A stretch of DNA of 64,000 bases, from the NCBI GenBank assembly GCA_051294905.1, contig CM119371.1, forward strand, positions 21,082,001-21,146,000, in the 5' to 3' direction. The notes under the pieces are model-generated. The model had not been told where the DNA came from and did no database searches. It worked only from the letters and a program-made list of their open reading frames with translations. Both the position numbers and the translations under genes were made by a program. The DNA is from Botryllus schlosseri (lineage: Eukaryota). Positions 1 to 40,755 of this stretch are shown here, piece by piece (position 1 is the stretch's first letter; the number at the start of each line of letters is the position of its first letter).

Positions 1-1082
1 AATTTTGGTACCGTACAATTTTCCACTCTGGAAGCCTTGATACCTGAATTGGTCTATTTCAACATACGAAACATAGTACAAAATCTAGGTCGTATTGTAC
101 ATAACACATTTCCGAAGTCGGTAATCGGTATGGTCGAAAAAATACCAAAGTATCTTAAATGTGATAGATAACGGGCATTATATCCTTTGTTGCGGCATGA
201 ACGGTACATATTTGAAATTGCACATCTTACATGCTGTTATGGTGTAATGATCAGGGATTCTCGATTATTCGACTCGAAGCATAATACATGATTCAGATTC
301 GAATCACCCATGTACTCGAATTTGGCCAGCCCTAGTGGCCACGGCCGAAACGCGCCATGCCGCTTCTTTCTCCAAAAGTGTCTGATCTGAATTGGCCATT
401 CGCCCAAATTCATTCAACTTCTGCTATACCGCATGTCGCCTTTTGTCTGGCATATTTTGTCAGAATCATGTCTGGTGTGTTTTCTAGAAATACCCGTAAT
501 ATCCATCTATCGTGAAGCTGCTGGGCTTTTCCCGTGTGAATTTTCAGATATTTCCAGCGTTTTACTTGATCAGTCTGATGCTGACCGCTTACCGCGCCCT
601 GTGTGTACCGGAATTTTGGCTTGCAAATGTGGTGCTTCAAATAAACCCTGCTTGACTTGATTGACTCATCTGTGGAAGTTAGACTTTCTGCTAAACTTAC
701 CAGAGTTGATTTTTCTCTATTCACGAGAAAAATTTTAAGGTGGTCATTGTAGGCTTACAATGCAATTTTATGCAAAAGTAGCGATTTCCACTGCATTAAC
801 GAGCTGCGTCAAGTAGAAGTAGAGAAGAGAAGTTTTGAAAGCTACTCAAGTAGTTCGATGGATTCAATGATAATAATAGGTTTTTTGTCAAGACGTCACA
901 GACTCAAGGGCGAGCTACTTCCTATTTCGCAGGATTCTTATTCGCAACTGGCCCACAATGACTACCTTCACTGTCAATTAATATGATTTGCAAAAATATA
1001 TTCCAGTGAACAATATGTTCATATTGCTAAATTTTTTCCACTCTAAACTTTTTGACTGACAACGATCGTCAGTGAATGCGAT

Positions 1083-1218
1083 TGTTGTGTCTTTATTCAC
1101 ATAACAAAATAAGCCACCAAACGGAAAACTATGAGCACTTATAAGCAACGTAAAGGCACCAATTAGTAGACATGGAAAATGATTATTAGACGTGATTGCA
1201 CCGACGTAATACACCACA
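1083..1218 (-). repeat. 3' LTR of the Gypsy element (136 bp)
   Basis: Identical by eye to 5354-5489; TGTTGTGT...ACACCACA ends; adjacent to the PPT. Confidence 0.96.
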
Positions 1219-1228
1219 TCTCCTCCCC
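1219..1228 (-). other. Polypurine tract
   Basis: GGGGAGGAGA on the minus strand immediately 5' of the 3' LTR. Confidence 0.9.
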
Positions 1229-1236
1229 AACTGATA

Positions 1237-4200
1237 CTATATTTCCTCGATCAAGCGTCTAGGTCGTCGTCGTATTCTTTGTGACGGAGGACGCAAAGGT
1301 GGCACTGTATTTTCAGTGTTTTGTCGCACAGGCGGCGCAGTATGTTCAGTGTTTTGGCGCTCAGGTGTCAATAGTTCATTGTCAACGTCCGCTACATTAG
1401 CGTTGCTTGGACTGAATACAGGTATAGGTATATTTTCTGTTTCCACTGGTGTTGGACTGGATGGAAGACGAGGACTTGCGAGACGACGATCTGGTGTTGG
1501 TGTCATGCTCGGTAATACGACTGGATCGACGATCTCTTCATCTTCCTGGTCGCAAAACCGTGACGCTGACAGATCTCGGATTTGGTCAATATGTCGCTTC
1601 CAGAGTAGGTCACCAACTTGTACGCGATACGTTGCAGGACCCAGCTTCTTGATAACAACTCCTCTTGCCCAGACTGAGGGGCGCTGTCGATAATCCTTGA
1701 CCATAACCGGATCGCCCACTTGCTGCTGACGAGACTTAAGAAGTTCGGTCGGTTTGCAAGCTGGATGATCCTTCTGCAACGTGGACTCCAATTGTGGGTG
1801 CACTAAATGCAACCGTGTCCGCAGCTCCCGTCCGAACATCGCTCTAGCAGGAGATATCTTTGTTGTTGAATGCGGAGTCGTTCGGTAGTGCAGCAACATC
1901 GACTGTAGCCTCCTCTTGATATCCGTTCCTCTGTTCGCTTCCTTCTTTAAAAATTCCTTTAAAACACGAACAAATCGTTCCGCAGAACCGTTGGTTTTGG
2001 GACTAAAGGGAGCAGTTCTAATGTGCTTAACACCATTCTGAGTCAAAAACAACTCGAACTGTTTAGACGTGAAAGGTGGTCCGTTATCACTTACTAGCTC
2101 ATCCGGCAGGCCATGCGTTGAGAAAATCTTACCAAGTACGGAAATCGTATTTTCAGCAGTAATTGAACTCATCTGATGCACTTCCGGCCATTTCGTCCGA
2201 GCATCCACTAGTACCAGGAAGTACTTCCCCATACGAGGTCCGGCAAAATCCACGTGTACTCGCTGCCATGCACGAGTTGGCCAGACCCAAGGATTCAAAA
2301 TTTCTGGCCTTCTGCTTTCACATTGTCTGCAGATAGCACAATCTCTAACCTTCTGTTCGATGTTACCGTCGAGATTGGGCCACCACACATGCATTCTGGC
2401 TGTTATCTTCATCCTTACGATCCCAGGATGGTGTTCATGCAATAAATCAAGGATCTGTCGTTGATATCGCGCTGGGATAACTACTCTGATTCCCCAAAGT
2501 AAGCAGTCCTGCTCGACTGTCAGTTCGTTCCTGCGAAAATAGAACGGTTGATATTCTGGAGATAAGCCGCCAGCAGGCCATCCGTTAATCACATAGTAAT
2601 GAACACGAGATAAAAGCGAGTCCCGGCGCGTCGCAAGGCCAATCTTTTTCGCCGTTATTGGCAGATTGTCTACCTGTATTGCATTTATCTCGTTGGCTTC
2701 CTGTGTTGATGGATCCACATCGGCTGATGCAATCGAGGGACTTCTCGAAAGCCAGTCCGCAGTAACATTCTGCTTACCCGGTTTGTAACGAATTTCGTAA
2801 TTATAACACGCGAGTTTGATTGCCCAACGTTGCAACCTGGATACGGCTAGCACGGGTATACCAGTCTTTGGACCTAGAATCATCGTCAAGGGTTTGTGGT
2901 CCGTAAACAGGGTAAACTTCCTCGCGAACAAGTAGTGATGAAATCTCTGTAACCCGAATATTATAGCCAGAGCTTCTTTCTCGATGTGAGAATAGTTTTT
3001 CTCGGCTGGTGACAATGTACGTGAGGCGTACGCGATTGGGCGCTCACGTTCTCCATCGGGTTGCATGATTACTGCTCCTAAACCATCAGGGGACGCGTCT
3101 ACTGACAGGGTAATCGGCTTATTAGGGTCATAGTGAGCCAATACCAACTCGGAGGTGAGCCAATTTTTCAACGCTCCGAAGGCCTTTTCACAAGCATCAT
3201 CCCACTTCCACTTCACGTCCTTTCTTAGCAAGTTCGTTAACGGTTGCAACAGACTGGATAGGTTCGGTATGAATTTTCTATGGACATTTACCATCCCGAG
3301 AAAAGACCGCAGTACACTCACGTTGTCTGGGCGGCAAGCAGAAGTCACTGATTGCAAATTTGAGTTGCTCGGTCGTATGCCATTCTTGTCAATCACATAG
3401 CCTAAATATTCCAGGGACTCTTCCAGGAAACAACACTTGGACTTTTTAGCTTTCAAACCATATTTATCCAAACGATTACATACAGTTGATAGCAGCTCAA
3501 GATTTTCCTTCTCCGAAGATCCGGTGATTAAGATGTCGTCTAGCAAACACGGTACATTCAGTCCTTGTAGTACCTGATCCATCAGTTGCTGAAAAATCGC
3601 CGGCGCTGATGCCACTCCAAACGGAAGTCGGGTGTATCTGAACAATCCAAGATGGGTGTTAATCACCACGTACTTACGCGAGTCGTCATCAAGCTCCACT
3701 TGCGTGTACGCTTGTGATAAATCGATCTTGCTAAAATACGAACTTTTCCTTCCGTTAAGAAGCGCTAGCAAGTCGTCGGGGGTCGGTAATGGATATTCGG
3801 GTATATCCAACTGCGGATTAATCGTAACTTTGAAGTCGCCACAAATACGAACTTCCCCGGACGCCTTTAGCACAGGCACAATTGGACTCGCCCAGTCGGA
3901 GTGCTCAACCTTTTCCAACACTCCAATATCCAATAACCTACGGATTTCTGTTTCCACTTTATCAAGTAAAGCGTATGGCACTTTACGCGCTTTGTAAAAT
4001 TTCGGAACGGCGTTGGGCTTCATGTTGAGCCGTGCTTTAAAGCCGACAACTTTCCCTAGTTGCGTTTCAAAGATGCTGGTATCCCCCAATAGCCTGCTTA
4101 GACAATCTCTCGAATTCTCACTCTGACCGCTATCCGAGACCATTCCGATTAATTTTGGCAAATTAATTTGTATTTTACGCATCCAGTTCCTACCGAACAA

Positions 4201-5295
4201 CGGCGGAGCTTCCATATCCAAAACAATCAAAGGCAATTTACAATCATGTCCCTGATAGCTCACCATCACCAAGGTTTTACCCAATACCGGCAGAATTTCG
4301 CCACTGTAGGCCTTCAATTTAATGTTGCATGGCTCCAGCGTCGCAAGAGGAAATTTCTCCCACAGTAAATACTTCGAAATTACGGATACTGCAGCACCTG
4401 TATCGAATATCATAGAAATGATAATACCGTCAATGCCAATATCTACGCGAATCTCATCTTTCCCTTCTACGAAGTTGATATTCATCAAGATACTCACACT
4501 GTCGTCTGTCGAGGACTCGGAACCGCAGTCGTCTGCATTACCAGCAACATCAGTTGATTGCTTATCCGTCGATCCGCTCAAACAGTTAGTCTTGCATGCG
4601 GTCTTACTCTTGCGCCTTGTACTTTTTCCGGGGCACATCTTTCTTATGTGTCCGACCCGTCTGCACGCATGACACAGCGCTGTGCGGAAGATACAATGGT
4701 CTTCTCCATGGTTAGATTTCCCGCAGCGCTTGCATTCCTGGTATTCTCGAGTCACCCGTTGTTCCCTTCGTACCATCGCGGTGCTGTAACTACCAGTATC
4801 GAAAAGTTGTCTCCCCGCTGCTTCCATTGCGATAGCCTTTTTAACAGCGTCTTCTAAACTCAAATCATTCTCCAACAGTAAGCGCTCCTGGATAGGTCTC
4901 GATCGCAGACCGCAGATGAGCCGATCTCGAATGGCCTGAGTTAAGAATGCCCCGAATTCGCAATGTTCCGACAATTTCTTCAGTGCCGCGACGAAGGCAT
5001 TGACAGGTTCACCCTCGTCTTGGACCCGTAGATTAAATTTATACCGCTCTGCCACTAACAACGGCTTCGGCGTTAGATGATCCCCGAGCAATTTAACTAT
5101 TTGTCGGTAACTCTTATCTTTCGGTTTTTCTGGTGTCGAGAGATTTCGAACGAGACTATATGCTTTCGCCCCACATACCGTTAGCAAGACAGCTTTCATT
5201 TTTCCTTCGTCGGCAATACCATTCGCTTCAAAGTAAAGCTCCAAGCGTTCGACATACTCGTCCCACTCGTCTTCACCCAAGTTGAACTCGGGCAC
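1237..5295 (-). CDS. gag-pol: Gag-Pol polyprotein (Gag with two CCHC knuckles, aspartic protease, reverse transcriptase, RNase H, integrase)
   Basis: 1352-aa ORF with CKRCGKSNHGEDHC and CHACRRVGHIRKMC knuckles; FDTGA protease; WASPIVPV, RICGDFK, RLPFGVASAPAIFQ and LLDD (RT); VDAS and YSHIEKEALAI (RNase H); HEHHPG...CAIC, VDFAG, SDNG, AERFV (integrase). The annotated start is GTG, so the true start is uncertain. Confidence 0.96.
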   Translation of the reverse strand: MPEFNLGEDEWDEYVERLELYFEANGIADEGKMKAVLLTVCGAKAYSLVRNLSTPEKPKDKSYRQIVKLLGDHLTPKPLLVAERYKFNLRVQDEGEPVNAFVAALKKLSEHCEFGAFLTQAIRDRLICGLRSRPIQERLLLENDLSLEDAVKKAIAMEAAGRQLFDTGSYSTAMVRREQRVTREYQECKRCGKSNHGEDHCIFRTALCHACRRVGHIRKMCPGKSTRRKSKTACKTNCLSGSTDKQSTDVAGNADDCGSESSTDDSVSILMNINFVEGKDEIRVDIGIDGIIISMIFDTGAAVSVISKYLLWEKFPLATLEPCNIKLKAYSGEILPVLGKTLVMVSYQGHDCKLPLIVLDMEAPPLFGRNWMRKIQINLPKLIGMVSDSGQSENSRDCLSRLLGDTSIFETQLGKVVGFKARLNMKPNAVPKFYKARKVPYALLDKVETEIRRLLDIGVLEKVEHSDWASPIVPVLKASGEVRICGDFKVTINPQLDIPEYPLPTPDDLLALLNGRKSSYFSKIDLSQAYTQVELDDDSRKYVVINTHLGLFRYTRLPFGVASAPAIFQQLMDQVLQGLNVPCLLDDILITGSSEKENLELLSTVCNRLDKYGLKAKKSKCCFLEESLEYLGYVIDKNGIRPSNSNLQSVTSACRPDNVSVLRSFLGMVNVHRKFIPNLSSLLQPLTNLLRKDVKWKWDDACEKAFGALKNWLTSELVLAHYDPNKPITLSVDASPDGLGAVIMQPDGERERPIAYASRTLSPAEKNYSHIEKEALAIIFGLQRFHHYLFARKFTLFTDHKPLTMILGPKTGIPVLAVSRLQRWAIKLACYNYEIRYKPGKQNVTADWLSRSPSIASADVDPSTQEANEINAIQVDNLPITAKKIGLATRRDSLLSRVHYYVINGWPAGGLSPEYQPFYFRRNELTVEQDCLLWGIRVVIPARYQRQILDLLHEHHPGIVRMKITARMHVWWPNLDGNIEQKVRDCAICRQCESRRPEILNPWVWPTRAWQRVHVDFAGPRMGKYFLVLVDARTKWPEVHQMSSITAENTISVLGKIFSTHGLPDELVSDNGPPFTSKQFELFLTQNGVKHIRTAPFSPKTNGSAERFVRVLKEFLKKEANRGTDIKRRLQSMLLHYRTTPHSTTKISPARAMFGRELRTRLHLVHPQLESTLQKDHPACKPTELLKSRQQQVGDPVMVKDYRQRPSVWARGVVIKKLGPATYRVQVGDLLWKRHIDQIRDLSASRFCDQEDEEIVDPVVLPSMTPTPDRRLASPRLPSSPTPVETENIPIPVFSPSNANVADVDNELLTPERQNTEHTAPPVRQNTENTVPPLRPPSQRIRRRPRRLIEEI

Positions 5296-5334
5296 TTTCC
5301 CGTATCCTCGGCTTCCGGCCGCAGGAGTGTCGTG

Positions 5335-5352
5335 ATCCCATCCTCGTCGCCA
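5335..5352 (-). other. Primer-binding site complementary to tRNA-Ser(GCU)
   Basis: Minus strand TGGCGACGAGGATGGGAT, 1 nt after the 5' LTR; the plus strand ATCCCATCCTCGTCGCCA matches the metazoan tRNA-Ser(GCU) 3' end plus CCA as I recall it. Confidence 0.85.
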
Positions 5353-5353
5353 A

Positions 5354-5489
5354 TGTTGTGTCTTTATTCACATAACAAAATAAGCCACCAAACGGAAAAC
5401 TATGAGCACTTATAAGCAACGTAAAGGCACCAATTAGTAGACATGGAAAATGATTATTAGACGTGATTGCACCGACGTAATACACCACA
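5354..5489 (-). repeat. 5' LTR of the Gypsy element (136 bp)
   Basis: Identical to 1083-1218 and followed on the minus strand by the PBS. Confidence 0.96.
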
Positions 5490-6801
5490 GCGATCAATGA
5501 AATTCGAAATATATATTGCCTTGTCATTATTACTCCACAATGACTTATGTCTTTCTGCATTTCAAATGTGTTTGATCGCATTTACTGACGTTTGCGCCTG
5601 ATGACAGTCAGTTGAAAAGCTTTGAGTAGAATAGATATGGCAGGATGGACATATTGTTTGCTGTAATATTGAAGTTCTGTACTTTCATAATCCTACATAA
5701 AAATATGTTCATTAATTTATTGTGATGCAGTGACGATTTTGTCTGGTAGTGTGACAATTTCGCTGGTAAAAAGTGATAAAAATGTCACCAAAAAGATATC
5801 ACTTTGCATTAAAAGTATGTGAGAAGTGGAACTAATCTGAAACAATAACCTTTCGAGTACGCACGGAAACGAAGCAGCACCTACCTGAGTATTTGGAAAA
5901 AGTAAAAATTATTACCTACTGATCATCTGTGGATGATAACACTGCTCTACACGATTTTTGCGCCAGGATTTCATTGTGTCAATTGTACCTAATTTTGGAG
6001 CGCTGAATCCGAATCTGGCGTTATTTTTGTTCTAACACGTCGGGTTTTGAGATGCTATGAATATCTCAAATATTACTGCTTTATCGGAGTACTCAATTAG
6101 ATTTCACCTACTTCCAGTACTTACTAAAGTGGTCATTAGGGCTCTTCAAAAATGACTTTTTTTCTTAAATCGTACCGGCTACTTGATAAAATTGTTAGGT
6201 TACCTAATTTAGGCCTACGCACAAAATTTGGTTCAATTCCAACCAGTAACCGCTTTGCTACAGGAGAAGAAAGTTTCTATTTAGTATATAAAAATAAACA
6301 ATAAAAAATTTGAAAATTTTCTGTTCACCCCATAAAAGTGTTAGGCTGTCTATAGAAACGACGCTCACCAAATTTGGTTCAATTCCAACCAGTGGAAGCG
6401 GAGTTATAACCATCGAAAAATTTGGATTCGAATAAAATAGTATTTACGGTGACCGATTCTTTGTTTATTTATTATAGTTGTGCTCACCGTAAATACTAAC
6501 CACTGGTCATGTGTTCCAACTACTTCAATTACTACTCCCACTGCATTTTGGATAAACCATTTACTTTTGCAATTTGGATTTTGAAAAGTAGAAAGTAGTT
6601 TACAAAGAAGATTACACTACTCCCTTACAAAGAAGATTACACTACTCCCATAACAAAAAAAAATCCGTTAAAAACTACTGAATTGGTCAGTCACACACAA
6701 TGTTCAAGTATGTCGATTAGGCAAGTGTGTCACGGTGTCATTATTCAAAATCACAGTGTATCTGGCTCCTAGTTGGGTTTTAATATTCAATTCGATTTCA
6801 G

Positions 6802-7053
6802 GATGCTCCGAAAAGTCCATATCCGACCATCCTCATTGATGATGAAGCAACATTCCTGCTATTTGATGGGGCTCGAGTGTCATGCGAAAATATGGAGGAA
6901 GCTTTAGCAGTGCTGATATCAGTGTATTGGATATTTGACATATGTTTTTCATACTTGAATGCAGCATATATGTGCTTCGTGTGTAGCTATGTGATCAAAC
7001 TGCCATCTATCAAGATGCCTATTCGGGCCATAAAATTACTAAATATTGCATGA
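6802..7053 (+). CDS. Putative terminal coding exon of a CACTA/EnSpm accessory gene (SAMD3 C-terminal-like)
   Basis: TTTCAG acceptor then 83 open codons: DAPKSPYPTILIDDEATFLLFDGARVSCENMEEALAVLISVYWIFDICFSYLNAAYMCFVCSYVIKLPSIKMPIRAIKLLNIA*. The ALAVL..VYWIFDI.F pattern recalls SAMD3-like TE proteins; it lies about 1.2 kb inside a CACTA end. Upstream exons not identified. Confidence 0.55.
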   Translation, partial: DAPKSPYPTILIDDEATFLLFDGARVSCENMEEALAVLISVYWIFDICFSYLNAAYMCFVCSYVIKLPSIKMPIRAIKLLNIA

Positions 7054-8039
7054 GCAATGAGCATGTAGAGGTGTTGAGAAATCTTTTCTTGTCAAATGTC
7101 AGTGATTCAGTTGTTAAATTATCTGGTTGCTTGGCAAAGAAATATATTGCAGGCCAAATTCAGCTCAATTCCTACAAGTAGAAGCCGAGTCAAACTAGAT
7201 ATCAATTTTGGAAATAACAGTTCTGTTTACGATGACAAATTTCGTCAATTTTACATCACAAAAAATTGTGTTTCAGCTATGCCCATTGGACAATGATGAT
7301 TTCTCCATGCGCTTACATATTTACAAGGATCTCTGCCATAGAGTTAGGATAGAGACATCGCCATTTGATATATAAAAACGATGCGACACTGTTAATATAG
7401 CAATGAGTCAACTTCATTGAAATGGCCAAATCGATGGTGATAAAATCGGAAAACATGATACTTTCCACACTGAAATGAATGACCACGAAAAGTAAATAAA
7501 CTGACCAAGAAGGTATAATACTTGTTAATATAGTTCTCAGGTGACAGTCAATATCTGGGACTATCTTTTATCGCGCCACTGTTGATTTCACAAAATCTAA
7601 ACGGAACTTCTGGCTATATGTTTTGAAGAATATGCCTAGGGGCCCTTATCAAGATCAAAACGCGTAGAAAAATCATCATTGTTCAACAAGCATACCTGCA
7701 ATATCGTATTTTTTGTGTGTTATTGTTCTTTTTCATGTTGAAGTGACGAAATTTCCAATCCGCTCCAAGTAGGCTGCTACTGGTTGGAATAGACCTAGCT
7801 CTAACGTTAAACGCTTTTAGACAACCTGACAATAACAACTGAATAGCTGAAATTAGGAAAACAAATTTTAACACGGCAGGAAAAATCATCAAATCAGTGA
7901 TTTTATTCTCTTTCTTCTCAGTTCTTTGGTTATTTCAAGCAATATCTTGTTATTATTTTTTATTATAGTGCAAAGAATAAAAATATATGACATCATGGCT
8001 GTATCTGCTGTTGATTTGCTAAGGTAGCCATTCGTAGGG

Positions 8040-8232
8040 GAGCACAGGAATTACACTGGGTGGTAATAAGGATAATCCACCCCAAACAATTTGGATAGGT
8101 TGGGTGTGATATTAGATCGACACCCAAAGTGTTGGGGTGAGTTTTGACGATATACAACCCCAGGGTTACGTAAGTTCTGTTTTCGTGTACCACCTTTTGG
8201 GGTGTGTATAACCACTTTTTTCGCTAAGAGTG
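8040..8232. mobile_element. Right terminus of a CACTA/EnSpm-type DNA transposon (left end not found in the window)
   Basis: Ends ...TTTTTTCGCTAAGAGTG|TA (5'-CACTCTTAGCGAAAAA on minus), with CACCC/GGGTG subterminal repeats in both orientations. It cuts the palindrome arm exactly at a TA (intact mirror site at 15045-15046). Confidence 0.75.
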
Positions 8233-11200
8233 TACTTTATCGTCGTAATCTGCGGTGGGAATTGAAACACGTTCACACATTATCCGCCGTGCAAGATATC
8301 ACACTAGACGAATTGTCATACCGCCGCCTGATTAATGCTTAATCCGTTCGAACCATTTCACGCACTTTGATCATTACAAAAGTAAATTGTGACATGTTTG
8401 TTAGATGCATCCAATTCAACTAGAAGTGTCTAGTGCCCAACACTCGTAATATCGAAAAAGTACTTGCTGCACTGTTATTTGCTAAACGTGTTTTGCATTG
8501 TTGTTCATTTCTAGTATTGATTGAAATCGTTCTTGAACCCTCAAATAATAATTCCCGACATGAAACCAAGCCGCTGAAAGTCGTTACCATCACGAAGAAA
8601 CAATGTGTACGATGTTTGTCAAATGTGTCCTACCTGGTCAACAGAAAACAATTTTCACTCACTCGAAATGAAACCAATGTGATGGTCTCCACTCGATATT
8701 TTGTTTGTGTCAAATACTTTGCAATGAACACATTTGCGTGGTTGAGCTTTACATCATCAAGCTGTTATTTGTAAATCAAGATTTCGGTAAACTTGTAAAT
8801 GTGTCGTTTAACTAACCGACATTTAGTGATTGGGGAACATACCACTTCGAAATACTGCGTTGATCGTAATTTCCATCATCGTGGTAATCGAAGTACATTT
8901 CTTTTGAATTCATAACAATCGGCTACGACATGATAAATTTTTGACAAGTTATGCTTAGAAGATTGGTTGCATATCGCGAAAAATAATATACCACTCATAT
9001 TGATACTGTTACTCAATTGATCGATATTTTCAAACGAGTAAAATTTATTACTTGAGTTTCTCCGCTTAATGTAAATGCAAACTCAGCCGTCTTTTAACAT
9101 CACAAAGGCATTGATAAAAAGTAGACAATCAAACGCTACAAGTTTAACTTTTGTAGGTTGTGTATGATTACCCCACACAACTCATTTCTTACCAAAAGTA
9201 GATGGAATATATTCATGGTACACGAAAATACTCGACATTCCCATGCTACGAACCTGTACAATGATTGGTGACGCTTTCAAAACTGTTTCCATACCTCAAG
9301 ACCTTTATTGTGTGAATGGATGTTCATGTATCTTAATAATCAAATAGTTCAACACAGAACTAGTACGAACAGAAACACCAGCGTTGTTTACACAAAAGTT
9401 TGTATGTGTACAGTATGCGAATACCATGTGTAAGTCCAGCACAATTGCGGTATCCACCCGAGTTTAGTTAACACAATTTACGACACCGAAGTCGCGTCAT
9501 CTTTCGTAAAACAACAAACCAACCAAGCCTTCAGGATATGTCAACACCATAGCAGTAAATCAGCTACTCCAACAACAAAGTACATATGTTTTTTAGTTAC
9601 GGTGCTTACATCTTACACACAAATCAATCTACTTTGCTAACGAAAAGTGCTGAGTCATCACATGATTACCCTCACAACAAAACAGCTAGAAGATGTTATC
9701 ATACAAAAATATTCCTAACCCTTTGCGCACCAGTGACAAATCATACAACAAACATTTTTTGTGAGTCTAATTGTTGTTCAGTGTCAAGTCTACCTGTTGA
9801 AACGTACATTAAAACAACACAGTCACAATTCAATTAAAACCACGGATCTATTTTCATTTCGTCACATACAGAAAAATAAATCTTCTTTCCCCAACACATA
9901 CTTGTAACCAATCGCTTTCATTAAACACACAACTCCATAAAAGTATTTACTTTCTACAACATAGACATTCCGATGTAGTCAAGAAATATTAAAACGGACA
10001 CGACACGACTGAATGTAAGGGGATAGAAGTCTATCGCATCGATTTACATGTGGTCTTCGCTACGGTTTCAAAAAACGAATCATCTATTTTGCATTGGTCG
10101 AGACCGAGCGAGCCAGTTACATGTATTCGCGGTAATGATTTTGCTTGTCATATGCGAATGATAGGTTTGCTACTCCGACAAATCAAATCAACAAACAACA
10201 ACAATCTTCTGACGATCATAATAGCAATTTCATTTGCCACCCCTTCGTAATTGTACACACACGAAAAGTATATTGTACAACTCGGCAACTACGTTTAACA
10301 AGACCAATCACACTACCAGCGTTGAACACAAGACACCTACCCAAGTCAAAAATATCATACTGGTTTGGGCAACTGACGTTTACCTGTGTAAAATTATCAT
10401 TTTCACTTGGCGATCTATCCTTTCCTAGAGTAACAAACCCTTATCGTTTACAAATCTATTTTTTTCCCACAGCAAAAAACTATTTTCACTTGGAAAAATA
10501 CTTTTACCTAGAGTAACTAATCATTTTCTTTTGAAAATATATTTTCTCTCTGGGTAACAAACCCTTTTCGTTTGGAAAACTATCATTTACCTGAGTACCA
10601 ATACCGTTTTCACTTGGCAGTCCGTCGTTTACCTGGCTAAACATGTCATTTTCACTTGGAAATCTATTTTTTCCCAGAGTAAGAAACCTTTTTCACTTGG
10701 AAATCTATTTTTTCCCTGGGTAACAAACCTTTTTCACTTGGAAATATATTTTTTCCCCGGGTAACAAACCTTTTTTCGCTCGGAAATATATTTTTCCCGG
10801 GGTTACAAACCTTTTTCACTTGGTGGTCCGTCGTTTACCTGAGTAAAAATATCATTTTCCTTTGGGGGATCTGGCGTTTACCCAGTGTAACAATACATTT
10901 TCTCTAGGTCATCTAGCTTTTCCTAGAGTAACAAAACCATTTTCATTTTGAAATCTGACAAACACACCTGACAATTTGATATTTTTGTATATTGTTACAA
11001 CGGATAGCGACAAAATATACACCAAAAACAACTCCAATACATTTGTGTAATCGCATATTCACTTGTGCTGATGCAACCCATCAAAATCATCGGTTACCCA
11101 CATGCAATGTGCTGTTGTACATCGACGTTTATGTTTTCGGAAAATTGGACCATAGGCTTCGATAGTTCTGTGATGTCCGGGCTCGTGCTTTGGATTTTCC

Positions 11201-11282
11201 AGAGTCAAAATGTCTGAATAAAACACCTCCTTGACGATGGTTGGTATGTGGATAACGGTGTTCGGAAAACGGTTGGATTTAT
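8233..11282 (+). repeat. Left arm of giant inverted repeat (3050 bp)
   Basis: Reverse complement of 11994-15046; mirrored ORF pairs in the track (8433..8774/14506..14847; 9586..9837/13443..13694). By eye about 20 or fewer substitutions and three small indels. Confidence 0.97.
10400..10950 (+). repeat. Degenerate ~37-39 bp minisatellite (GTAACAAACCTTTTTCACTTGGAAATMTATTTTTTCCC-like)
   Basis: Motif recurs in tandem; mirrored at ~12325-12900 and present in a different arrangement at ~61530-62060. Confidence 0.85.
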
Positions 11283-11993
11283 GTCACCCATCGCGATAAC
11301 AATTCCAGGTCGAGTTTTCCCCCGCGTGTTTACTATATTGTGTCATTATTGGTCATGTATGTCTCGACATTCAGTTTGAAATCGGAAACCTTGATAAAGT
11401 ATGTAACCGGATCCGGATATCAACTCTGAATCGATAAACCAATGAACAATATTCAAAGTATTCATGTTACACCCTGTGTTTCCACGAAAAAATACCATCC
11501 AGACATACGTCGCGCTTGTTTGCCCACATCAGTATACGCGTAAATGGAGGTGTGTGACATTGCATGCAATGTGTTGGTATACAAACATCGATCCACAGAC
11601 ATTATCATAGCCGGTAGTTTTGATGTAGATCGAATGTCATCACACCCGATAACAATGTCATACCAATAAGCCACATTGCAATGACTCTGAGTCCGCGCTA
11701 TTACATCGATATTTCGGCACCGTTCACTGATTTACTCGATGGTGTTATCGTGTTGTAACATTACAAGATAGTCATGGCCCTATCTCCGGACAGACCACCC
11801 AGACCAATTGGATACATCGGTCAATATCCGTCGTGTTGTCGACACCGAAGTTTTCTGCTGCAGCGTTTGACCAAGGTGAACTATCGAATCACGGGTGCTC
11901 GAAATGATTGCGATCAGTCTTTCAGTCACGATCACTGGATGTCACTACTCCCACATAACGACTCCAGATAAATATCGTGAACAGTGATTCTGG

Positions 11994-14900
11994 ATAAATC
12001 CAACCGTTTTCCGAACACCGTTATCCACATACCAACCATCGTCAAGGAGGTGTTTTATTCAGACATTTTGACTCTGGAAAATCCAAAGCACGAGCCCGGA
12101 CATCACAGAACTATCGAAGCCTATGGTCCAATTTTCCGAAAACATAAACGTCGATGTACAACAGCACATTGCATGTGGGTAACCGATGATTTTGATGGGT
12201 TGCATCAGCACAAGTGAATATGCGATTACACAAATGTATTGGAGTTGTTTTTGGTGTATATTTTGTCGCTATCCGTTGTAACAATATACAAAAATATCAA
12301 ATTGTCAGGTGTGTTTGTCAGATTTCAAAATGAAAATGGTTTTGTTACTCTAGGAAAAGCTAGATGACCTAGAGAAAATGTATTGTTACACTGGGTAAAC
12401 GCCAGATCCCCCAAAGGAAAATGATATTTTTACTCAGGTAAACGACGGACCACCAAGTGAAAAAGGTTTGTAACCCCGGGAAAAATATATTTCCGAGCGA
12501 AAAAAGGTTTGTTACCCGGGGAAAAAATATATTTCCAAGTGAAAAAGGTTTGTTACCCAGGGAAAAAATAGATTTCCAAGTGAAAAAGGTTTCTTACTCT
12601 GGGAAAAAATAGATTTCCAAGTGAAAATGATATGTTTAGCCAGGTAAACGACGGACTGCCAAGTGAAAACGGTATTGGTACTCAGGTAAATGATAGTTTT
12701 CCAAACGAAAAGGGTTTGTTACCCAGAGAGAAAATATATTTTCAAAAGAAAATGATTAGTTACTCTAGGTAAAAGTATTTTTCCAAGTGAAAATAGTTTT
12801 TTGCTGTGGGAAAAAAAATAGATTTGTAAACGATAAGGGTTTGTTACTCTAGGAAAGGATAGATCGCCAAGTGAAAATGATAATTTTACACAGGTAAACG
12901 TCAGTTGCCCAAACCAGTATGATATTTTTGACTTGAGTAGGTGTCTTGTGTTCAACGCTGGTAGTGTGATTGGTCTTGTTAAACGTAGCTGCCGAGTTGT
13001 ACAATATACTTTTCGTGTGTGTACAATTACGAAGGGGTGGCAAATGAAATTGCTATTATGATCGTCAGAAGATTGTTGTTGTTGTTTGTTGATTTGATTT
13101 GTCGGAGTAGCAAACCTATCATTCGCATATGACAAGCAAAATCATTACCGCGAATACATGTAACTGGCTTGCTCGGTCTCGACCAATGCAAAATAGATGA
13201 TTCGTTTTTTGAAACCGTAGCGAAGACCACATGTAAATCGATGCGATAGACTTCTATCCCCTTACATTCAGTCGTGTCGTGTCCGTTTTAAAATTTCTTG
13301 ACTACATCGGAATGTCTATGTTGTAGAAGGTAAATACTTTTATGGAGTTGTGTGTTTAATGAAAGCGATTGGTTACAAGTATGTGTTGGGGAAAGAAAAT
13401 TTATTTTTCTGTATGTGACGAAATGAAAATAGATCCGTGGTTTTAATTGAATTGTGACTGTGTTGTTTTAATGTACGTTTCAACAGGTAGACTTGACACT
13501 GAACAACAATTAGACTCACAAAAAATGTTTGTTGTATGATTTGTCACTGGTGCGCAAAGGGTTAGGAATATTTTTGTATGATAATATCTTCTAGCTGTTT
13601 TGTTGTGAGGGTAATCATGTGATGACTCAGCACTTTTCGTTAGCAAAGTAGATTGATTTGTGTGTAAGATGTAAGCACCGTAACTAAAAAACATATGTAC
13701 TTTGTTGTTGGAGTAGCTGATTTACTGCTATGGTGTTGACATATCCTGAAGGCTTGGTTGGTTTGTTGTTTTACGAAAGATGACGCGACCTCGGTGTCGT
13801 AAATTGTGTTAACTAAACTCGGGTGGATACCGCAATTGTGCTGGACTTACACATGGTATTCGCATACTGTACACATACAAACTTTTGTGTAAACAACTCT
13901 GGTGTTTCTGTTCGTACTAGTTCTGTGTTGAACTATTTGATTATTAAGATACATGAACATCCATTCAGACAATAAAGGTCTTGAGGTATGGAAACAGTTT
14001 TGAAAGCGTCACCAATCATTGTACAGGTTCGTAGCATGGGAATGTCGAGTATTTTCGTGTACCATGAATATATTCCATCTACTTTTGGTAAGAAATGAGT
14101 TGTGTGGGGTAATCATACACAACCTACAAAAGTTAAACTTGTAGCGTTTGATTGTCTACTTTTTATCAATGCCTTTGTGATGTTAAAAGACGGCTGAGTT
14201 TGCATTTACATTAAGCGGAGAAACTCAAGTAATAAATTTTACTCGTTTGAAAATATCGATCAATGGAGTAACAGTATCAATATGAGTGGTATATTATTTT
14301 TCGCGATATGCAACCAATCTTCTAAGCATAACTTGTCAAAAATTTATCATGTCGTAGCCGATTGTTATGAATTCGAAAGAAATGTACTTCGATTACCACG
14401 ATGATGGAAATTACGATCAACGCAGTATTTCGAAGTGGTATGTTCCCCAATCACTAAATGTCGGTTAGTTAAACGACACATTTACAAGTTTACCGAAATC
14501 TTGATTTACAAATAACAGCTTGATGATGTAAAGCTCAACCACGCAAATGTGTTCATTGCAAAGTATTTGACACAAACAAAATATCGAGTGGAGACCATCA
14601 CATTGGTTTCATTTCGAGTGAGTGGAAATTGTTTTCTGTTGACCAGGTAGGACACATTTGACAAACATCGTACACATTGTTTCTTCGTGATGGTAACGAC
14701 TTTCAGCGGCTTGGTTTCATGTCGGGAATTATTATTTGAGGGTTCAAGAACGATTTCAATCAATACTATAAATGAACAACAATGCAAAGCACGTTTAGCA
14801 AATAACAGTGCAGCAAGTACTTTTTCGATATTACGAGTGTTGGGCACTAGAAACTTCTAGTTGAATTGGATGCATCTAACAAACATGTCACAATTTACTT

Positions 14901-15046
14901 TTGTAATGATCAAAGTGCGTGAAATGGTTCGAACGGATTAAGCATTAATCAGGCGGCGGTATGACAATTCGTCTAGTGTGATATCTTGACGGCGGATAAT
15001 GTGTGAACGTGTTTCAATTCCCACCGCAGATTACGACGATAAAGTA
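11994..15046 (-). repeat. Right arm of giant inverted repeat (3053 bp matched; element continues to 18468)
   Basis: Reverse complement of 8233-11282. Sequence beyond 15046 is homologous, inverted, to ~57330-59205, so it belongs to the same element. Confidence 0.97.
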
Positions 15047-16879
15047 TTGTACCGGTTATTGTTCAACAAAGGAAATTGTTGTTTCATCTTTAGTCTTGGT
15101 TACTGAAGACAATTACATTTGTAAAATATTTCCTGATATCCACAATACGCTGCGTGGTTTTTACGAACACGGCTTAATCTTCCCAATCAAAACATTTCAG
15201 ATATGTTAATCTAGTTTCACAAATCGAAATGTTAATAACAATGTTTCTGAAAAGTTTGTTGGTGTCGTGATAACCTTCTACACAACCCTGATCTAATAAT
15301 GTCATGATTTAATAACCAAGTCATGATCGAGTATTACAAAATCTCATATGTCAAAATCAATGTGTCAATTCGTGAAAATTTTCAATATAACACCCGCGTT
15401 TGATCGTAAGAATTCTCAACTACGTGTTCGGACATTCAAATTTCGTATACTCAAATGTAATATGTTAATCTCAAACCACACACCGAGTAGTATTTACTTT
15501 GGTTTATAAAATTTACCGAGTAGTAATTACTTTATCTTACAGCATAGTAACGACTTTTACAGTTGAACAAAGATGATTTGGTGGTATATGACTACAACCG
15601 AACTTGTTATGGATTTTAGATTGTAGCGATTGTATGTACTCGCGTAATCTTGTCTTCTTCTTTCTGTATAGTTGGTTGGCCGAGTTACAAACGGATTTAC
15701 TTGACAAGGTTTTCATGATTTACTCTTTTGAGTATGGTAAGATGTTAAAATTTCGAGGTGTAATACTATTTCCGTTCACTCGATTACAACAAAAAATACC
15801 CAGATAAGTTGCTCAAGGCTTCTTTTGTTTCAAATCAACATGTGAATAATCAGTTATTGTGACAAGTTGAAATGTCGTACCGAAGTTGTGAGTGGGAACA
15901 GTACGCGATTGTGTAAGTGTGAGGACAGCGAGATGGTGATCGTGTGAATAAATTAATCTGAAACGCATTGGAGTGAAAGTTTACCCAGTCTGTCTGGTAA
16001 TCCTACTTCAAATCGTGATATGACAAAGTAGCTTGAAATATTCCGATTCAACTCATCGCATCGCAACTCGATCGTGGTATGCACAAGTGGTTGTCAAGTA
16101 AGAAATATTTACAACAGGTGCTATTTCATTGATTGACTTGATTGTGTGTAGTAACACATTAAAATATAGCGATAGTAATTACTGAAACTCTATTTGACAA
16201 ACGGAAAACTGTGAATAGCGTTGTAAGGTTTCATTACTTGTTTCAAATCAATATGCGTATAATCTCTAACTATGGTTGGGTTGAAAGTTGGTAGTAATGT
16301 TTGTCAATCTATTTCAATTCGGACTATGTCAAGTCCAAATATTTCATTTTGGATTATCTGGATTTACCTTTAGTACATCTCGCGAATGGATTCCGACGCC
16401 GCGCTATAACATTTTTGATGATAAGGACTCGAGGATTTTCATGATAGAGTTGACGAGTGATAAGATGCGTGTTTTTGTTAAGAGTTTGATTTCATGTTGA
16501 TAAAGACAATAACTGTATAATGCACATACTTGTGATTCTTGATTCTTGTAGAATTATAGTTGGTATTGATTCTATAAGTGTGAAAACAGCGGCGTGGAAT
16601 GTGCGAATAATTCGATGTAGCTGAAAGTCGGCGTCAGTAATATTCGGGTTATGGTCGAATCAAAAGATCACGAAAAGATTTCTCAAAATAATTAGAATTG
16701 TACCGAATTAACACATTCAGATACGAATCAACTTGGTTTGTGTAGTAAGTTTCATTTCGAGTTGGCAAATTGATACATTGGTTGAATATTCTCATAATTC
16801 TTATCGCGCAACTAAAGTCAGCCACTGTTCGAAGTGTCAAAACATATAGCGACCACCAGAAAGTGTCAAATTGTTGGTT

Positions 16880-17660
16880 TTCGAATCACCGTCTGCGACG
16901 GTTCTGGGACAAACTAATTACCGAAATATTACCTTGTGAGCGGACATGAGGGATTGCTATGTCTGAAGCATTATCCGGTGAGTGGTCGTTGGATTTTAAA
17001 ATTATATCACACCCTTTTGAATAAGCGTTCACTTCACAGAGGATTAGGGTTAGAGCGGAAATACGTGACAATTTGTCGCTATTCAAGTTACCGACACTGG
17101 CGGTCTGTTATTCGTTACTTGTTAAATCTTACCAGCGAAATCAAGTTCTGTGACAAACTGATTACTAAAATTTCACCGCGTGAGCGATCGGTATGGTTAT
17201 GACACCAAGTCGTGAAAGATGGTTATGTGCGAGACATTATCTTGTCAGTGATCGCGGGGTTTTGCAAATATTTCACACCTTTTTGAATAAGCGTTAACTT
17301 CACAAAGGATTACGGCTAGAATAGAAATAAGTGACACTTTGTTGGTATTCAAGTCTCGCCGGTGGTGTATCTGTTATTCGACACTTATTACACGTATCAC
17401 GAAATTAGAGTGAGAACATAAAGCATCAAGTTGTTGTTTTCGAATTTTGATGCCGAGGTGATAAATTTACGCATTCAATTATAATTCAACTTTGGTTGTG
17501 TATTGAGTGATAGATCGATATGCCGGAAGTGGTATCTTGTGAGTGATCGTAGGATTTTACAAATATTTCACATCTTTTTGAAGTGTTAGTTTGCGAACGC
17601 GACTATTGTTGATATTCGAATCGCCGTCTGCGCCGGCTCTGTGGCAGACTAAATACCCGA
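16880..17660 (+). repeat. Old internal tandem duplications (~270-290 bp period) within copy A
   Basis: AAATATTTCACACCTTTTTGAA-like blocks at ~17000, ~17267 and ~17561; CGAATC.CCGTCTGCG.CGG blocks at ~16882 and ~17617. Confidence 0.7.
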
Positions 17661-17689
17661 GAGTACGACTTACCGCCACCACCTATATC

Positions 17690-18435
17690 CGAAAACGTTA
17701 GCATGCGACCGATCCCTATCTCTGTAACGCTATCATGCAACCGGAGCCTATACCTGGAACATTAGCATGCCGCCGCCGCCTATACCCGAAAGTACGAATC
17801 ACGAACACGAGTTTTCATTACGAGTCACCGCCGCAGCCTATACCCGAAAGTACGAATCACGACCGCACCCATAAGACACAAAAGCCGCTCGCCACCCCCG
17901 CCATAAGACGCAATAGCCGCTCACCACCCCCGCCATAAGAAATAAGAGCCGCTCACCACCCCCGCCATAAGACACAATAGCCGCTCACCACCCCCGGTTT
18001 TCCAGCCGCTCACGACCCCCGCCATAAGACGAAAACGTTAGCATGCCATCCCCGCCATAAGACGAAAACGTTAGCTCGCCACCCCCGCCATAAGACGAAA
18101 ACGTTAGCTCGCCACCCCCGCCATAAGACGAAAACGTTAGCTCGCCACCCCCGGTTTCTCGTTAGCTCGCCACCCCCGCCATAAGAAATAAGAGCCGCTC
18201 ACCACCCCCGCCATAAGACACAATAGCCGCTCACCACCCCCGGTTTTCCAGCCGCTCACGACCCCCGCCATAAGACGAAAACGTTAGCATGCCACCCCCG
18301 CCATAAGACGAAAACGTTAGCATGCCACCCCCGCCATAAGACGAAAACGTTAGCATGCCACCCCCGCCATAAGATGAAAACGTTAGCATGCCACCCCCGG
18401 TTTCGCGTTAGCATGCGACCCCGCCCATAAGAACC
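17690..18435 (+). repeat. Subterminal tandem repeats (33-bp unit CCACCCCCGCCATAAGACGAAAACGTTAGCATG and variants)
   Basis: Directly visible tandem units; a higher-order block repeats at 246-bp spacing (AATAAGAGCC at 17941 and 18187); the array ends about 35 bp from the ACTACT terminus. Confidence 0.92.
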
Positions 18436-18519
18436 CCAGGCACACCCAGACCGATCTATATAACTACTAACATGAAACTTATAAATGATGAAAAAAGAAT
18501 AAAAATCATCCCAATCACC

Positions 18520-19285
18520 TGATGAGCCTGGACACAAAGCATGCGCTCTCCATGAAGACGTACCGGATGCCTTCGTCTTTTCTCTGAGATTCCTCCACTT
18601 TTGTGACAGCTTTTTCGAGAAGTAATACTGAAAAGCATTTGATCATGAATGCACTTTAATACAAAATATATTGAATTCGGAGAGTATTCGGGCAGTAGGT
18701 CATAGTCAAGACTCAAGAGAGGATGGTGCTTCATAGCAAAACAAGTCCGGTGTCTTCATATTTTTGTGTCTCCTTTTACAATGGCTACAGAGATCTTCAT
18801 ATTTTGAATACACAATGCCACAGATCCTGCATGACATGATAACACTAGGATGTTGTCTGTGACAATAAATGTGTAGACAGAAAATCGACAGTTCCGATAA
18901 AAGGGCACAAACAACACTTTCCATTAGACATTCTACCAAACCATATCAAGTAATTGAAACAGGCCAAGTGCAAAGAATGATGTACATAACTTCATCTGCA
19001 AATGAGGTTTCAACACTAGGTCTATTATGATATCTTCAGATGAAATTATTAAACAGCATTAGCTCTTATTTTCATGGTCTGCTCTTATGGCGCATCAAGC
19101 TGCTAGATCGAAAATAGGTAATCTGTATCTACTCATACCGCTCGGCGCTGGTGCTGTATGTGAAACTCGATAACATGAACATAACATTATTTACAGATGA
19201 TGTTGAAAATTTACATAAACGAATTACCTTGCAGTAAATCAATGTGCTCCCTCTTAATTCCGTTTTGAACTAAAAATATCTCCAT
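18520..19285 (-). pseudogene. Degenerate spliced gene fragment with a C2H2 zinc finger, probably TE-derived
   Basis: Candidate first exon MEIFLVQNGIKREHIDLLQ followed by a GTAATT donor (19285-19228); downstream CRICGIVYSKYEDLCSHCKRRH finger in ORF 18706..18939; stops follow. Confidence 0.4.
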
Positions 19286-25500: not shown

Positions 25501-25638
25501 AAGTGGGTTACTGATTTAGCCCATCGAGTGTCTCACTAAAAAGACAACAATTTCCCTCGTTTTGATTTATTTCAACCATAGCGCATCATTTCGACCAAAT
25601 CAGTTTTTGGGTTTTATACGGGAAATTCTAGTGCTTGA

Positions 25639-27944
25639 TAGTGATGAGCGGAGTCTGCTTTTCGAGACTCCGAGTCCCTCCGACAACTTTGGTCTCTGAG
25701 GCAAAGTCCCTCCGACTCCGGGGATCTCAATCCCAGACTCCGAGATAACCCGAAGAATCTTGTCCAGTCTCCAAAACCATATCGGTAGAGGTAGTTATTC
25801 AAAACCATTGTCGAAGAATCCCAATCGATGTTTTCGATAGCCTGTCTGATATTCAGACCAGTTTTCTTAGTATCCGTGAATTGCCGAACAGTCGCAACAT
25901 TACTTCTGAGAGTCAAGATCTCTCCAACAAAATATACAGTCAAGCTAATAGAACTGCGACCCTTTAGATCGGTCCACATATCTGTGGTGATGCCAGCCAG
26001 CCCATAAGACTTGATAGCAACTCTTAGTTCCTCTGACAGCTTCTGCTTCAAAGATGAAGCCTCCTCATCCAACTTACATTTCACTGTAAATCTGGATGGC
26101 AAAACGTCTTCTGCACAACACCACGGCAAACCGGCACTTCTTCGGTATATTCTCCACCCGGCGATCAGTGTTCCCCATGATCACCTTCTCCTTTGATTTC
26201 TCGCTTACTTTTTTGTTGGAAGAAAGAAAGGAACTTTCTTCAACTGCGATCAATTCTTCTTACACGCTTCGCTATGTCTTCGAAGATGCGACGTACCACT
26301 TGTCGACTTGTGATGCTTTAGCTGAACATTGCAATTTTGACATCTCGCAAACCCAGTTGGTCGTTATTATCATGCAGCATCAGAGTGAAATCCTTCCACA
26401 CGTCACTCTTTTTCTGCGTCTTTGTGGGTAACCCACTTGACGTCGACGGTGCTTCAGCCATTATATTAAAACGACGAAGGAAGACCAGTCAGTTCGAACT
26501 AACTACCACTAACACCACTGGAATCGACGATCACAGGTTTCAGTAAATTAAGTTCCGCATCGCCATGAAACAGTTGATGGAACTGCACTAAACATACATG
26601 ATGCATCGTTGACGCACCGATCGACGCTCCTTGGAGTTGACTAAATGACTAGTGAGACTGACTTCCAATTTTGAAGCTGATACATGATATCTGGAATTTG
26701 GAGTCTGAGACAGAACAGCAGCAGAAACTTGATTGCGGTGCTGTTTTTTCTTATCACATCAAAGTCATTTCTCAATCAAACCAAACATTACATGACGAAT
26801 ATTCAGATGAGTTCTGGATGACTGACCACGTCAATCAATATTGGCGGAAGCGTAGTTGATGCGAGCAGAGGAAAGCAGTAGGTTGCAGTTAGTGTGGCTG
26901 TTCAGAAATTCGGAATGTTTTGTTTTTACAGGGTAAGATCAGCTTACCTTAGTGATTTATGTATTGTTGAAATCTTTAAAGCGGGCTTAGATGCTGGTAT
27001 GCCTCTGAGCGGATCTTACTAGCGAAATGTCATTAAATCATTGTAACACATTGCATAAGTTATTATTGTTTCCATCCAGAAACTTGCTTGTTGTATGTAT
27101 ATTTCTCAGATATAAAGGTAATATTGATGTAACACTTATTATCGATATCTCTCACTGCAAATTGCAAGTACGATGAAAGTTGCGAAAAGTTATCACAAAA
27201 GTGGTATCGGATATTATCTTGTTTCAACTGATACCAACGTTGGGAATACATTTTCACAAAATGGACCTATTACTATGTTGAATGTCATCGGGATAATGGG
27301 ATATATTCCGTTATGATCATGAACTTGCTGAAAGAATCAGGATAGCTAAAGGTTGTACCATAGGGAAGCCCCGCTGTATGTTGCTGATTGTAAATGTTTC
27401 GCACAATTACTGGGGTGGCATGAAAATCAGTCACCAAACAAATACGAAAGGAGGAATGTGACTTTAGAAAACTGCAACGTGGAAGATTCTGGAGATCTTA
27501 TCTCATAATATGGTGACATTCAGCTGTGGATTCACAGACTGCATCTCAAGGCAGGGAGCAAATGATGCACTGCGAATGATATTGGGCGCCTTTAATTTTG
27601 TGAACTACAGACACTGCTCAACGAAAATGCCTTGCTAGATCACTAGGTTACTCTCCAGTCTCCAATTACAGTGCAGATGGCTGTTTTTTATGCACTTGGC
27701 AATCATTTTTGCATGTTACCCGTCATATTACAACTTTGCAAGGTGTCAGCTGTCTGTGTTTTGGTTTGTAGTCAATAGTGTCTTCTGGTTAGAGCTATCG
27801 AAAGATATCGGGGGCAAAACTTAGAACACTCCGGAAAACTCCGGAAAAATATCTGTTGTAAACTCCGAGCCCACTCCGAGTATCACAAAATTAGCAAAAC
27901 TCCGCTCCGGAAACACTCCGACTCCGCTCCGATGCTCATCACTG
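25639..27944 (-). mobile_element. Internally deleted hAT transposon (hobo/Hermes/Ac-like)
   Basis: TIRs YAGTGATGAGC, perfect 8-bp TSD GTGCTTGA (25631-25638, 27945-27952), CTCCGA/CTCCG subterminal repeats at both ends, transposase remnant inside. Confidence 0.92.
25820..26461 (-). pseudogene. Truncated, frameshifted hAT transposase (BED finger plus first catalytic Asp)
   Basis: MAEAPSTS...SDVWKDF...(frameshift)ARCQNCNVQLKHHKSTSGTSHLRRHSEAC BED finger, then LPSRFTV...GITTDMWTD...SLTVYF...TGLNIRQAI; the C-terminal part is missing. Confidence 0.88.
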
Positions 27945-40720: not shown

Positions 40721-40755
40721 ATCGATGTCAGTCAGCTCTCGTATTTTTTAACTTA

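Follow-up and report, generated by a model that had tools for sequence, protein, structure and literature searches.

A degenerate giant palindrome, probably from a foldback-shaped satellite family of Polintons, in the genome of Botryllus schlosseri

The 64,000 bp of Botryllus schlosseri DNA analysed here (assembly GCA_051294905.1, contig CM119371.1, positions 21,082,001 to 21,146,000 of the forward strand; hereafter the window) contains, at positions 8233 to 18468, part of a giant palindromic element with the ends of a Polinton/Maverick. An inverted-repeat search finds its arms in three consecutive blocks, 8292-10223 with 13057-14988 (99% identity), 10189-10468 with 12809-13088 (98%) and 10459-11282 with 11994-12817 (100%), leaving a spacing of 711 nt. 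Aligned by BLAST, 8233-11282 matches 15046-11994 at 99.28% over 3054 positions, with 17 mismatches and 5 gap positions, and the initial annotation was therefore right to describe arms of about 3.05 kb at more than 99% identity. The inner 3.05 kb of the left arm lies at 8233-11282 on the plus strand and that of the right arm, from both searches, at 11994-15046 on the minus strand. Towards its inner end, the left arm contains an array of approximately ten copies of a 41-nt tandem repeat (10400-10823), mirrored at 12453-12877. The right arm continues outward on the minus strand for another 3.4 kb (15044-18468, placed by BLAST and by reading of the terminus), running as described through subterminal tandem repeats of 32 to 33 nt, in two arrays of about 12 copies (17869-18433), to an ACTACT end. 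The terminal 30 nt, at 18439-18468, read AGTAGTTATATAGATCGGTCTGGGTGTGCC on the minus strand.

The left arm is broken at 8232/8233, and its outer part is found beyond the start of the window. When 20 kb of upstream sequence is added, self-BLAST places the mirror of 18468-15044 at window positions -15347 to -11923 (C1:21066653-21070077), 12 to 15 kb upstream of the window, as 3425 bp at 99.68% identity with 11 mismatches and no gaps. A search of the 496-Mb assembly with the terminal 881 bp likewise returns 869 bp at 100% on the opposite strand (C1:21066653-21067521). The left junction is AACATG/AGTAGTTATATAG and the right is ACTACT/AACATG at 18468/18469-18474; both ends of the element start AGTAGTTATATAG and the right terminus at 18468 reads ...CTATATAACTACT. 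The 6-bp target site duplication (TSD) AACATG is therefore present on both sides, at 18469-18474 on the right and at L021:4647-4652 of the upstream stretch on the left, so that the mirrored terminus and duplication predicted upstream are both in place. Terminal inverted repeats (TIRs) and a TSD within the 5 to 8 bp of Polintons are features of this element, and its AGTAGT...ACTACT ends had rightly been called Polinton-type. In all, it spans C1:21066653-21100468, 33,816 bp, of which 20,155 bp was inserted later into the left arm. With this insertion discounted, the element is 13,661 bp long with arms of 6.48 kb, as against the approximately 13.7 kb and 6.5 kb that had been estimated, and about 95% of its own length is in the two arms, which differ from one another by 28 substitutions.

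Little in this DNA could be coding. The longest stop-to-stop frame within 8233-18468 is 140 amino acids (aa), five frames from the arms and loop have no match in Pfam, and when the 51 frames of at least 70 aa from a Polinton of the same genome, described below, are compared with the arms by tblastn, the only ones to match are those running through shared repeats. On the evidence of the frames, Pfam and tblastn, the element has neither the PolB nor the rve integrase of an autonomous Polinton, which bears out the statement that it has no long open reading frame (ORF) and has lost all enzymes. Rfam and tRNA scans of 8000-18700 also find nothing. Five arm frames of 73 to 116 aa, shared in position between copies and located in the best-conserved DNA, were rejected as genes because four of them vary in extent or sequence among copies. 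In one bulk RNA run, 57 reads of 12.9 million records match, all of them fitting in part, in 13 of 30 bins. Since the arms share no coding sequence with that Polinton, the candidate helper, and the bulk RNA provides only these partial reads, there is no support for the proposal that the arms produce kb-long double-stranded RNA against the helper.

It is clear that this element is not unique. A search with its terminus identifies many paired ends 11 to 22 kb apart, and all ten of the pairs that were fetched are giant palindromes. An eleventh pair, at 17.6 kb, has the terminus most like that of this element and is also a palindrome, with a 4-kb insertion. The sample considered here is thus 12 copies: this element, ten pairs obtained by terminus similarity and one obtained by terminal motif. 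The 11 relatives are 11.9 to 14.6 kb where no insertion adds to the length; three of ten carry an insertion or are nested in another copy, and the copy of 11.9 kb, C8b, is rearranged. Within a copy, the arms are 98.6 to 100% identical in 10 relatives and 93.8 to 98.2% identical in C8b. The ends of all 12 copies are readable, and in 11 they are AGTAGT...ACTACT ends with distinct, perfect, direct 6-bp duplications. Together with a Polinton encoding PolB and integrase that shares the terminal motif, the separate duplications of the 11 copies argue for the mobilisation in trans that the initial annotation had proposed.

Genome-wide, the motif AGTAGT-N6/7-GATCG-N-TC occurs 1160 times in the forward and 1160 times in the reverse orientation, compared to 10 and 18 occurrences of a reversed control. 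The first 100 matches include 84 of this type, which form 29 same-motif pairs; the spacing is 12.9 to 15.5 kb in 21 of the 29 (median 13.7 kb), with palindromy known for the fetched pairs only. The family appears to have hundreds of members. The other 16 of these matches (C1:162774-3823620 and 13022941) belong to a different repeat, the motif of which is AGTAGTTTT(G/A)GTCGATCG.TC. This repeat is unpaired and is on the minus strand in 15 of the 16 cases. A 2.5-kb inner-arm fragment of another family member is present close to the element, at window positions -19476 to -17012, 1.7 kb upstream of the left terminus. It is 76 to 91% identical to the arms of this element and has no partner arm in the region searched.

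The centres of these palindromes are also related. Most of the family loops are homologous and 8 of 11 contain a conserved frame, 90 to 93 aa from its methionine (about 91), with invariant VLR, DFTPDEP and GSHI stretches; examples are at L035:7835-8125 and L027:8328-8642 in the loops of relatives, with six further loops having the frame. The ratio of nonsynonymous to synonymous substitution rates (dN/dS) is 0.19 to 0.42 in all 16 pairs between two subgroups, the pairs not being independent, across a gap-free core of 75 codons, and judged from these ratios the loop gene is under purifying selection. It belongs to no Pfam family, its five relatives of 90 to 93 aa are unnamed and are located on contigs of about 1 kb, and AlphaFold gives a mean pLDDT of 38, thus no usable structure model. 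Kinship with an ATPase-like ORF of the Polinton was considered on the basis of tblastn (E 0.003 to 0.009) but rejected, the hhalign probability being 5%.

In its centre, the closest relative of the element is the copy C5a, at about 93% identity. Mapped onto C5a, the element has a deletion of approximately 1.05 kb, by which 411 nt of the right arm and all but a remnant of the loop were lost. The apparent loop of 711 nt is made up of a 'widowed' arm segment of 411 nt (11283-11693, plus strand), which matches both arms of C5a, C8a, C15a and C9a and has had its right-hand partner deleted, and some 300 nt of family loop (11694-11993, plus strand), the remainder of the loop having been deleted with the gene of about 91 aa. 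By this comparison, the element has lost the loop gene. Because the 711-nt loop results from a secondary deletion of about 1.05 kb, it is not a template-switch junction. With the central deletion and the CACTA-type insertion in its left arm, the element is doubly defective.

The history of the arms was traced in a tree built from both arms of six relatives, the right arm of this element and two pieces of its left arm; C11a, C7a, C8b, C6a and the 17.6-kb copy, being interrupted or rearranged, were left out. The six relatives have arms of 6.19 to 6.87 kb, loops of 332 to 988 nt and totals of 13,333 to 14,594 bp. In all seven copies the two arms are sister tips with support of 100/100, the tips being 0.0034 or shorter and the copy-specific stems 0.035 to 0.19. 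Arm identity is 99.44 to 99.94% within a copy and 69.8 to 91.6% between copies. Seven copies lacking a large insertion stay within 13.3 to 14.6 kb, which is 73 to 80% of the 18.3-kb length of the Polinton, even though gaps make up about a quarter of the alignment columns. With arms 70 to 92% alike between copies, the palindrome must be older than these insertions. On these alignments, the palindrome is inherited from a palindromic ancestor and was not made at this locus, contrary to the suggestion that the element arose by a template switch of its own, and the arms are, on the evidence of the tree, continually re-synchronised and evolving in concert.

One locus provides a view of how this might happen. 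The copy C6a (C6:10551600-10574000) has inverted flanks, aatgga on one side and tccatt on the other, rather than a direct duplication. It is inserted into the loop of another member of the family, its host. Inner arm and loop sequence of the host is mirrored on both sides up to the C6a termini, so that C6a and its host share one axis and make up a single, larger palindrome. Of 862 candidates, 40 were scored, and among these the full junction is present nowhere but at this locus. The mirrored host flanks indicate that arm-to-arm copying has crossed the nested boundary in place, and the locus supports, as far as its junctions can tell, in-situ conversion or fold-back repair of the arms.

A candidate helper was found among the terminus pairs of the genome-wide motif scan. 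This is a Polinton at C1:5923771-5942033, 18,263 bp long with 443-bp TIRs and a GCCGAG duplication. Elements of this type are defined, in the accessible text of PMC5499653, by PolB plus a retrovirus-like integrase, and both are present: a 1214-aa frame matches PF03175 PolB at 32.6 bits (cut-off 25.8), and a 359-aa frame matches rve at 60.1 bits and also has a Chromo domain. A further frame with a P-loop has weak similarity to an A32-like ATPase. Over the first 30 nt, the Polinton and the palindromic element are identical at 22 positions by hand count and share the motif AGTAGT-N6-GATCG-N-TC. The TIR of the Polinton also contains a 32-nt unit resembling that of the element, as judged by eye and by 87% identity over 86 nt, with arrays of about 3 copies compared to about 12 in the element. 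In the copy C7b, a further 938 bp beyond the TIR is 89% identical to one Polinton end, giving about 1.4 kb in its arms; altogether the match to the compared Polinton covers at most 1.2 to 1.4 kb of an arm of 6.2 to 6.5 kb. The autonomous partner with PolB, integrase, ATPase and capsid that had been anticipated is therefore present in part: PolB and rve are there, the ATPase is weak, no capsid genes were identified and the termini match at only 22 of 30 positions.

Polintons are well represented in this genome. A protein search identifies at least 38 PolB loci at 92 to 100% amino-acid identity, 33 of which are without internal stops, among 437 candidates; they fall into two length classes, with matches starting at residues 5 to 14 or at residues 75 to 77. 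The near-identity of these sequences points to a young and possibly active Polinton population. The element thus has the attributes of a non-autonomous Polinton derivative, termini and subterminal repeats shared with Polintons and open-frame candidate helpers in the same genome. The family copy C11a sits inside a 432-aa gene of another Polinton with the duplication GTTGTC (L023:292-1282, L024:about 8121-9140), and its flanks match frames at 4422-7133 of the Polinton compared here.

Taken together, the element probably belongs, as a decayed copy, to an abundant family of Polinton/Maverick derivatives that are non-autonomous and palindromic over almost their whole length ('snap-back'-shaped). 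Mobilisation would be through the Polinton integrase: the retrovirus-like integrase of the helper is envisaged to recognise the shared termini and to insert the element with a 6-bp stagger. The larger repeat arrays, of about 12 copies rather than about 3, would be putative extra binding sites with which the satellite could compete for helper proteins. The arms would be kept identical through the copying of one from the other, either in place by gene conversion or fold-back repair, as may be seen at the C6a locus, or in the course of protein-primed replication, when a displaced strand folds back on itself as a hairpin.

Several observations weigh against this reading. In four of the 12 copies (this element, C11a, C7a and the 17.6-kb copy), just one of the two arms carries an insertion, and these sites have thus escaped in-place copying. 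After the 22 of 30 identical terminal positions there are only patches of 75 to 87% identity within about 1.2 kb, in comparison with one Polinton, and more than 5 kb of each arm matches no gene of that Polinton. No helper with an identical terminus was found, the most similar pair fetched, that of 17.6 kb, being another palindrome. A 6-bp duplication is not exclusive to Polintons. Statements of copy number are based on motif counts and 12 copies, short of a full census. A genome-wide scan with the PF03175 profile returned no match, as did PF00770, and the controls were also silent, making the scans uninformative; the empty PF03175 scan is a false negative, since the PolB of the candidate helper itself scores only 32.6 bits and the protein search finds 38 loci.

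The most durable alternative concerns the same element and differs in how the arms are kept alike. They may be reset in each cycle of replication or transposition, by a snapped-back strand or by the copying of one half that is then completed, making the family a satellite replicon of polintoviruses, perhaps packaged. This is tentatively entertained as possible, though it falls well short of probable. Adenovirus and the linear plasmids of yeast are known to have palindromic derivatives and panhandle or hairpin intermediates. The sister relationship of the arms in every copy of the tree, across up to 30% divergence, fits such a reset, as does the holding of length at 73 to 80% of that of the helper, and the insertions confined to single arms are expected if chromosomal copies are not converted. 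However, the composite palindrome at C6a seems to have formed in place, and the accessible text of PMC8981503 indicates that sex-chromosome palindromes maintain arm identity of more than 99% through gene conversion alone. In keeping such identity for a long time, and in the in-place arm copying of C6a, the family is like these palindromes as that text describes them; unlike it, they are large, immobile and gene-bearing, whereas here the palindromes are mobile elements of 13 to 14 kb.

It is unlikely that the element is a foldback transposon of another superfamily, Drosophila FB-like or of MULE/P-type, that resembles Polintons at its tips only. Long inverted arms, subterminal tandem repeats, little or no coding capacity and high copy number make up the classic foldback picture, and the foldback transposons of Drosophila also have arms that evolve together. 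Drosophila FB transposons, however, have a 9-bp TSD and an FB/MULE-type transposase partner. The duplication here is 6 bp in 11 of the 12 copies, the termini are Polinton-type and so is the presumed helper; the terminal motif and 32-nt repeats are shared with an element encoding PolB and integrase that also makes 6-bp duplications, and 938 bp of the C7b arm is 89% identical to the end of that element. The arms are also mostly unique sequence rather than arrays of repeats. No other transposase was found in the 12 copies, in searches that did not include one aimed at an FB/MULE-type transposase partner.

Very improbable is the explanation that the initial annotation favoured, a unique copy-back or snap-back defective genome, produced by a template switch on one Polinton end and with the 711-nt loop marking the switch. 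The architecture and the ends do fit, and in the accessible text of PMC13506859 snap-back defective genomes are near full-length palindromes and are distinguished from copy-back genomes. The copy-back architecture that had been claimed is therefore borne out as far as the near full-length palindrome goes, while by the wording of that text the term should be 'snap-back'. The family shares with such genomes, on the same account, the almost full-length palindrome, the retention of both replication or integration ends and, if the helper role proposed here is correct, dependence on a helper. It differs from them in being integrated, inherited, transposing and diversified, in that helper sequence cannot be recognised in most of the arm, and in that the loop of this element is not the switch junction. 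Duplication of one Polinton end, as had been suggested, holds for at most about 1.2 to 1.4 kb of the arm, the rest matching no Polinton gene. Moreover, all 11 other copies share the architecture, with homologous arms and loops, the loop of this element is the family loop minus about 1.05 kb that includes 411 nt of one arm, and the divergence of arms between copies places the palindrome before the insertion, refuting this explanation for this copy. The roughly 1.4 kb of one Polinton end in the arms of C7b makes a template switch plausible for the founder of the family. Incomplete particles of adenovirus, reportedly described by Daniell in 1976, are said to be a precedent, and the hairpin plasmids of yeast pGKL are another.

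Foldback chimeras are a known artefact of long reads, but an assembly artefact, in which one such read has been assembled as a palindrome, is next to inconceivable and, like chance, is excluded because there are 28 arm substitutions, a 20-kb insertion confined to one of the arms, exact termini with a direct 6-bp duplication, and the same structure at 11 other loci, each with its own duplication (direct in all but C6a), while independent runs show summed word depths far above the flank, depth here giving no copy number.

The element is thus best seen as a degenerate copy from a satellite family of Polintons that has the shape of a foldback transposon. It may be compared with the Polintons themselves, for which the accessible text of PMC10748475 gives a size of 13 to 25 kb, TIRs of 100 to 1,500 bp and duplications of 5 to 8 bp, typically 6 bp. 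The size of the element is within this range, the AGTAGT...ACTACT ends and 6-bp TSD agree, and the subterminal repeats are common to a PolB and integrase element of the same genome. In contrast, it is without genes for PolB, integrase, ATPase, protease and capsid, and its arms are 6.5 kb against TIRs of 100 to 1,500 bp. Some butterfly Polintons have TIRs of about 2 kb that carry the hexon and adenain genes, in elements that are gene-complete, according to the available text of bioRxiv 10.1101/2025.02.07.637071. These resemble the present family in having TIRs far beyond the usual size, with internal sequence duplicated in inverted orientation, and as described there they differ from the 6.5-kb non-coding arms found here, with a loop of 1 kb or less between them. 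No description of gene-less palindromic Polinton derivatives was found in the accessible full-text literature, a scope from which subscription papers, Repbase reports and supplements are excluded.

A more speculative proposal, and a rather doubtful one, is that the family is an obligate satellite replicon of polintoviruses: copied as a hairpin by the protein-primed polymerase of the helper, its arms reset in the process, packaged by the helper, and equipped with the 32-nt repeats as decoys and with the loop protein of about 91 aa as a factor of its own. If true, packaging would explain why almost entirely non-coding DNA is held at a constant 13.3 to 14.6 kb despite divergence of up to 30%. The family would then amount to a defective-interfering or satellite system archived in chromosomes, its helper being an animal DNA virus-like element, and would serve as a natural reporter of Polinton replication. 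To our knowledge, the replication and transposition of Polintons/Mavericks have so far been inferred only in silico. As a natural cis-only substrate, the family would show which sequences the helper machinery needs, namely the terminal 20 to 30 nt and the 32-nt repeats, and it makes the existence of single-stranded, self-annealing intermediates a testable question. A large share of the 'Polinton' terminus matches in this genome appear to be gene-less satellites, the 21 pairs of satellite size among the 29 being from one surveyed stretch, which bears on annotation and on how viral load is estimated.

The insertion that splits the left arm is outside the palindromic element proper. It is 20,155 bp long (window positions -11922 to 8232, with 1-8232 inside the window), starting CACTGTAAACG... 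(CACTG...) and finishing ...CGCTAAGAGTG (...GAGTG, that is, CACTC... inverted). Its flanks, caata before and tacttt after, are ambiguous between a TA and a 3-bp (TAC) duplication. It includes a plus-strand frame of 426+365 aa with one in-frame stop (L022:1567-3942, window positions about -8434 to -6059), which has no Pfam match of its own. The frame has 29 homologues, all uncharacterised, the named sources of which are ascidians, Hydra, a tick, a crinoid and an octocoral; one of the 29 matches PF02992, the Tnp2 transposase family of En/Spm elements. CACTA/En-Spm elements are marked by CACT(A/G) termini, a 3-bp duplication and a Tnp2-type transposase. The left arm does stop against an insertion, as had been noted, and the label CACTA-type that was given to it is plausible from its CACT ends and the PF02992 match of the single homologue.

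Nested in this insertion, and likewise outside the palindromic element, is a Ty3/Gypsy long terminal repeat (LTR) retrotransposon at 1083-5489 on the minus strand, identified by reading domains from its translation. It has an open gag-pol frame of 1376 aa (1237-5367), LTRs of 136 nt at 1083-1218 and 5354-5489, and GCGAT duplications at 1078-1082 and 5490-5494. Dating the arms of the palindrome from these LTRs was rejected, as 136 nt is too short even though the two are identical over that length; the retrotransposon looks like a very recent insertion. Elsewhere in the window, other long frames are present at 37852-40747, 25614-26180 and 44918-45508 (688, 329, 327 and 308 aa, overlapping on both strands, plus others).

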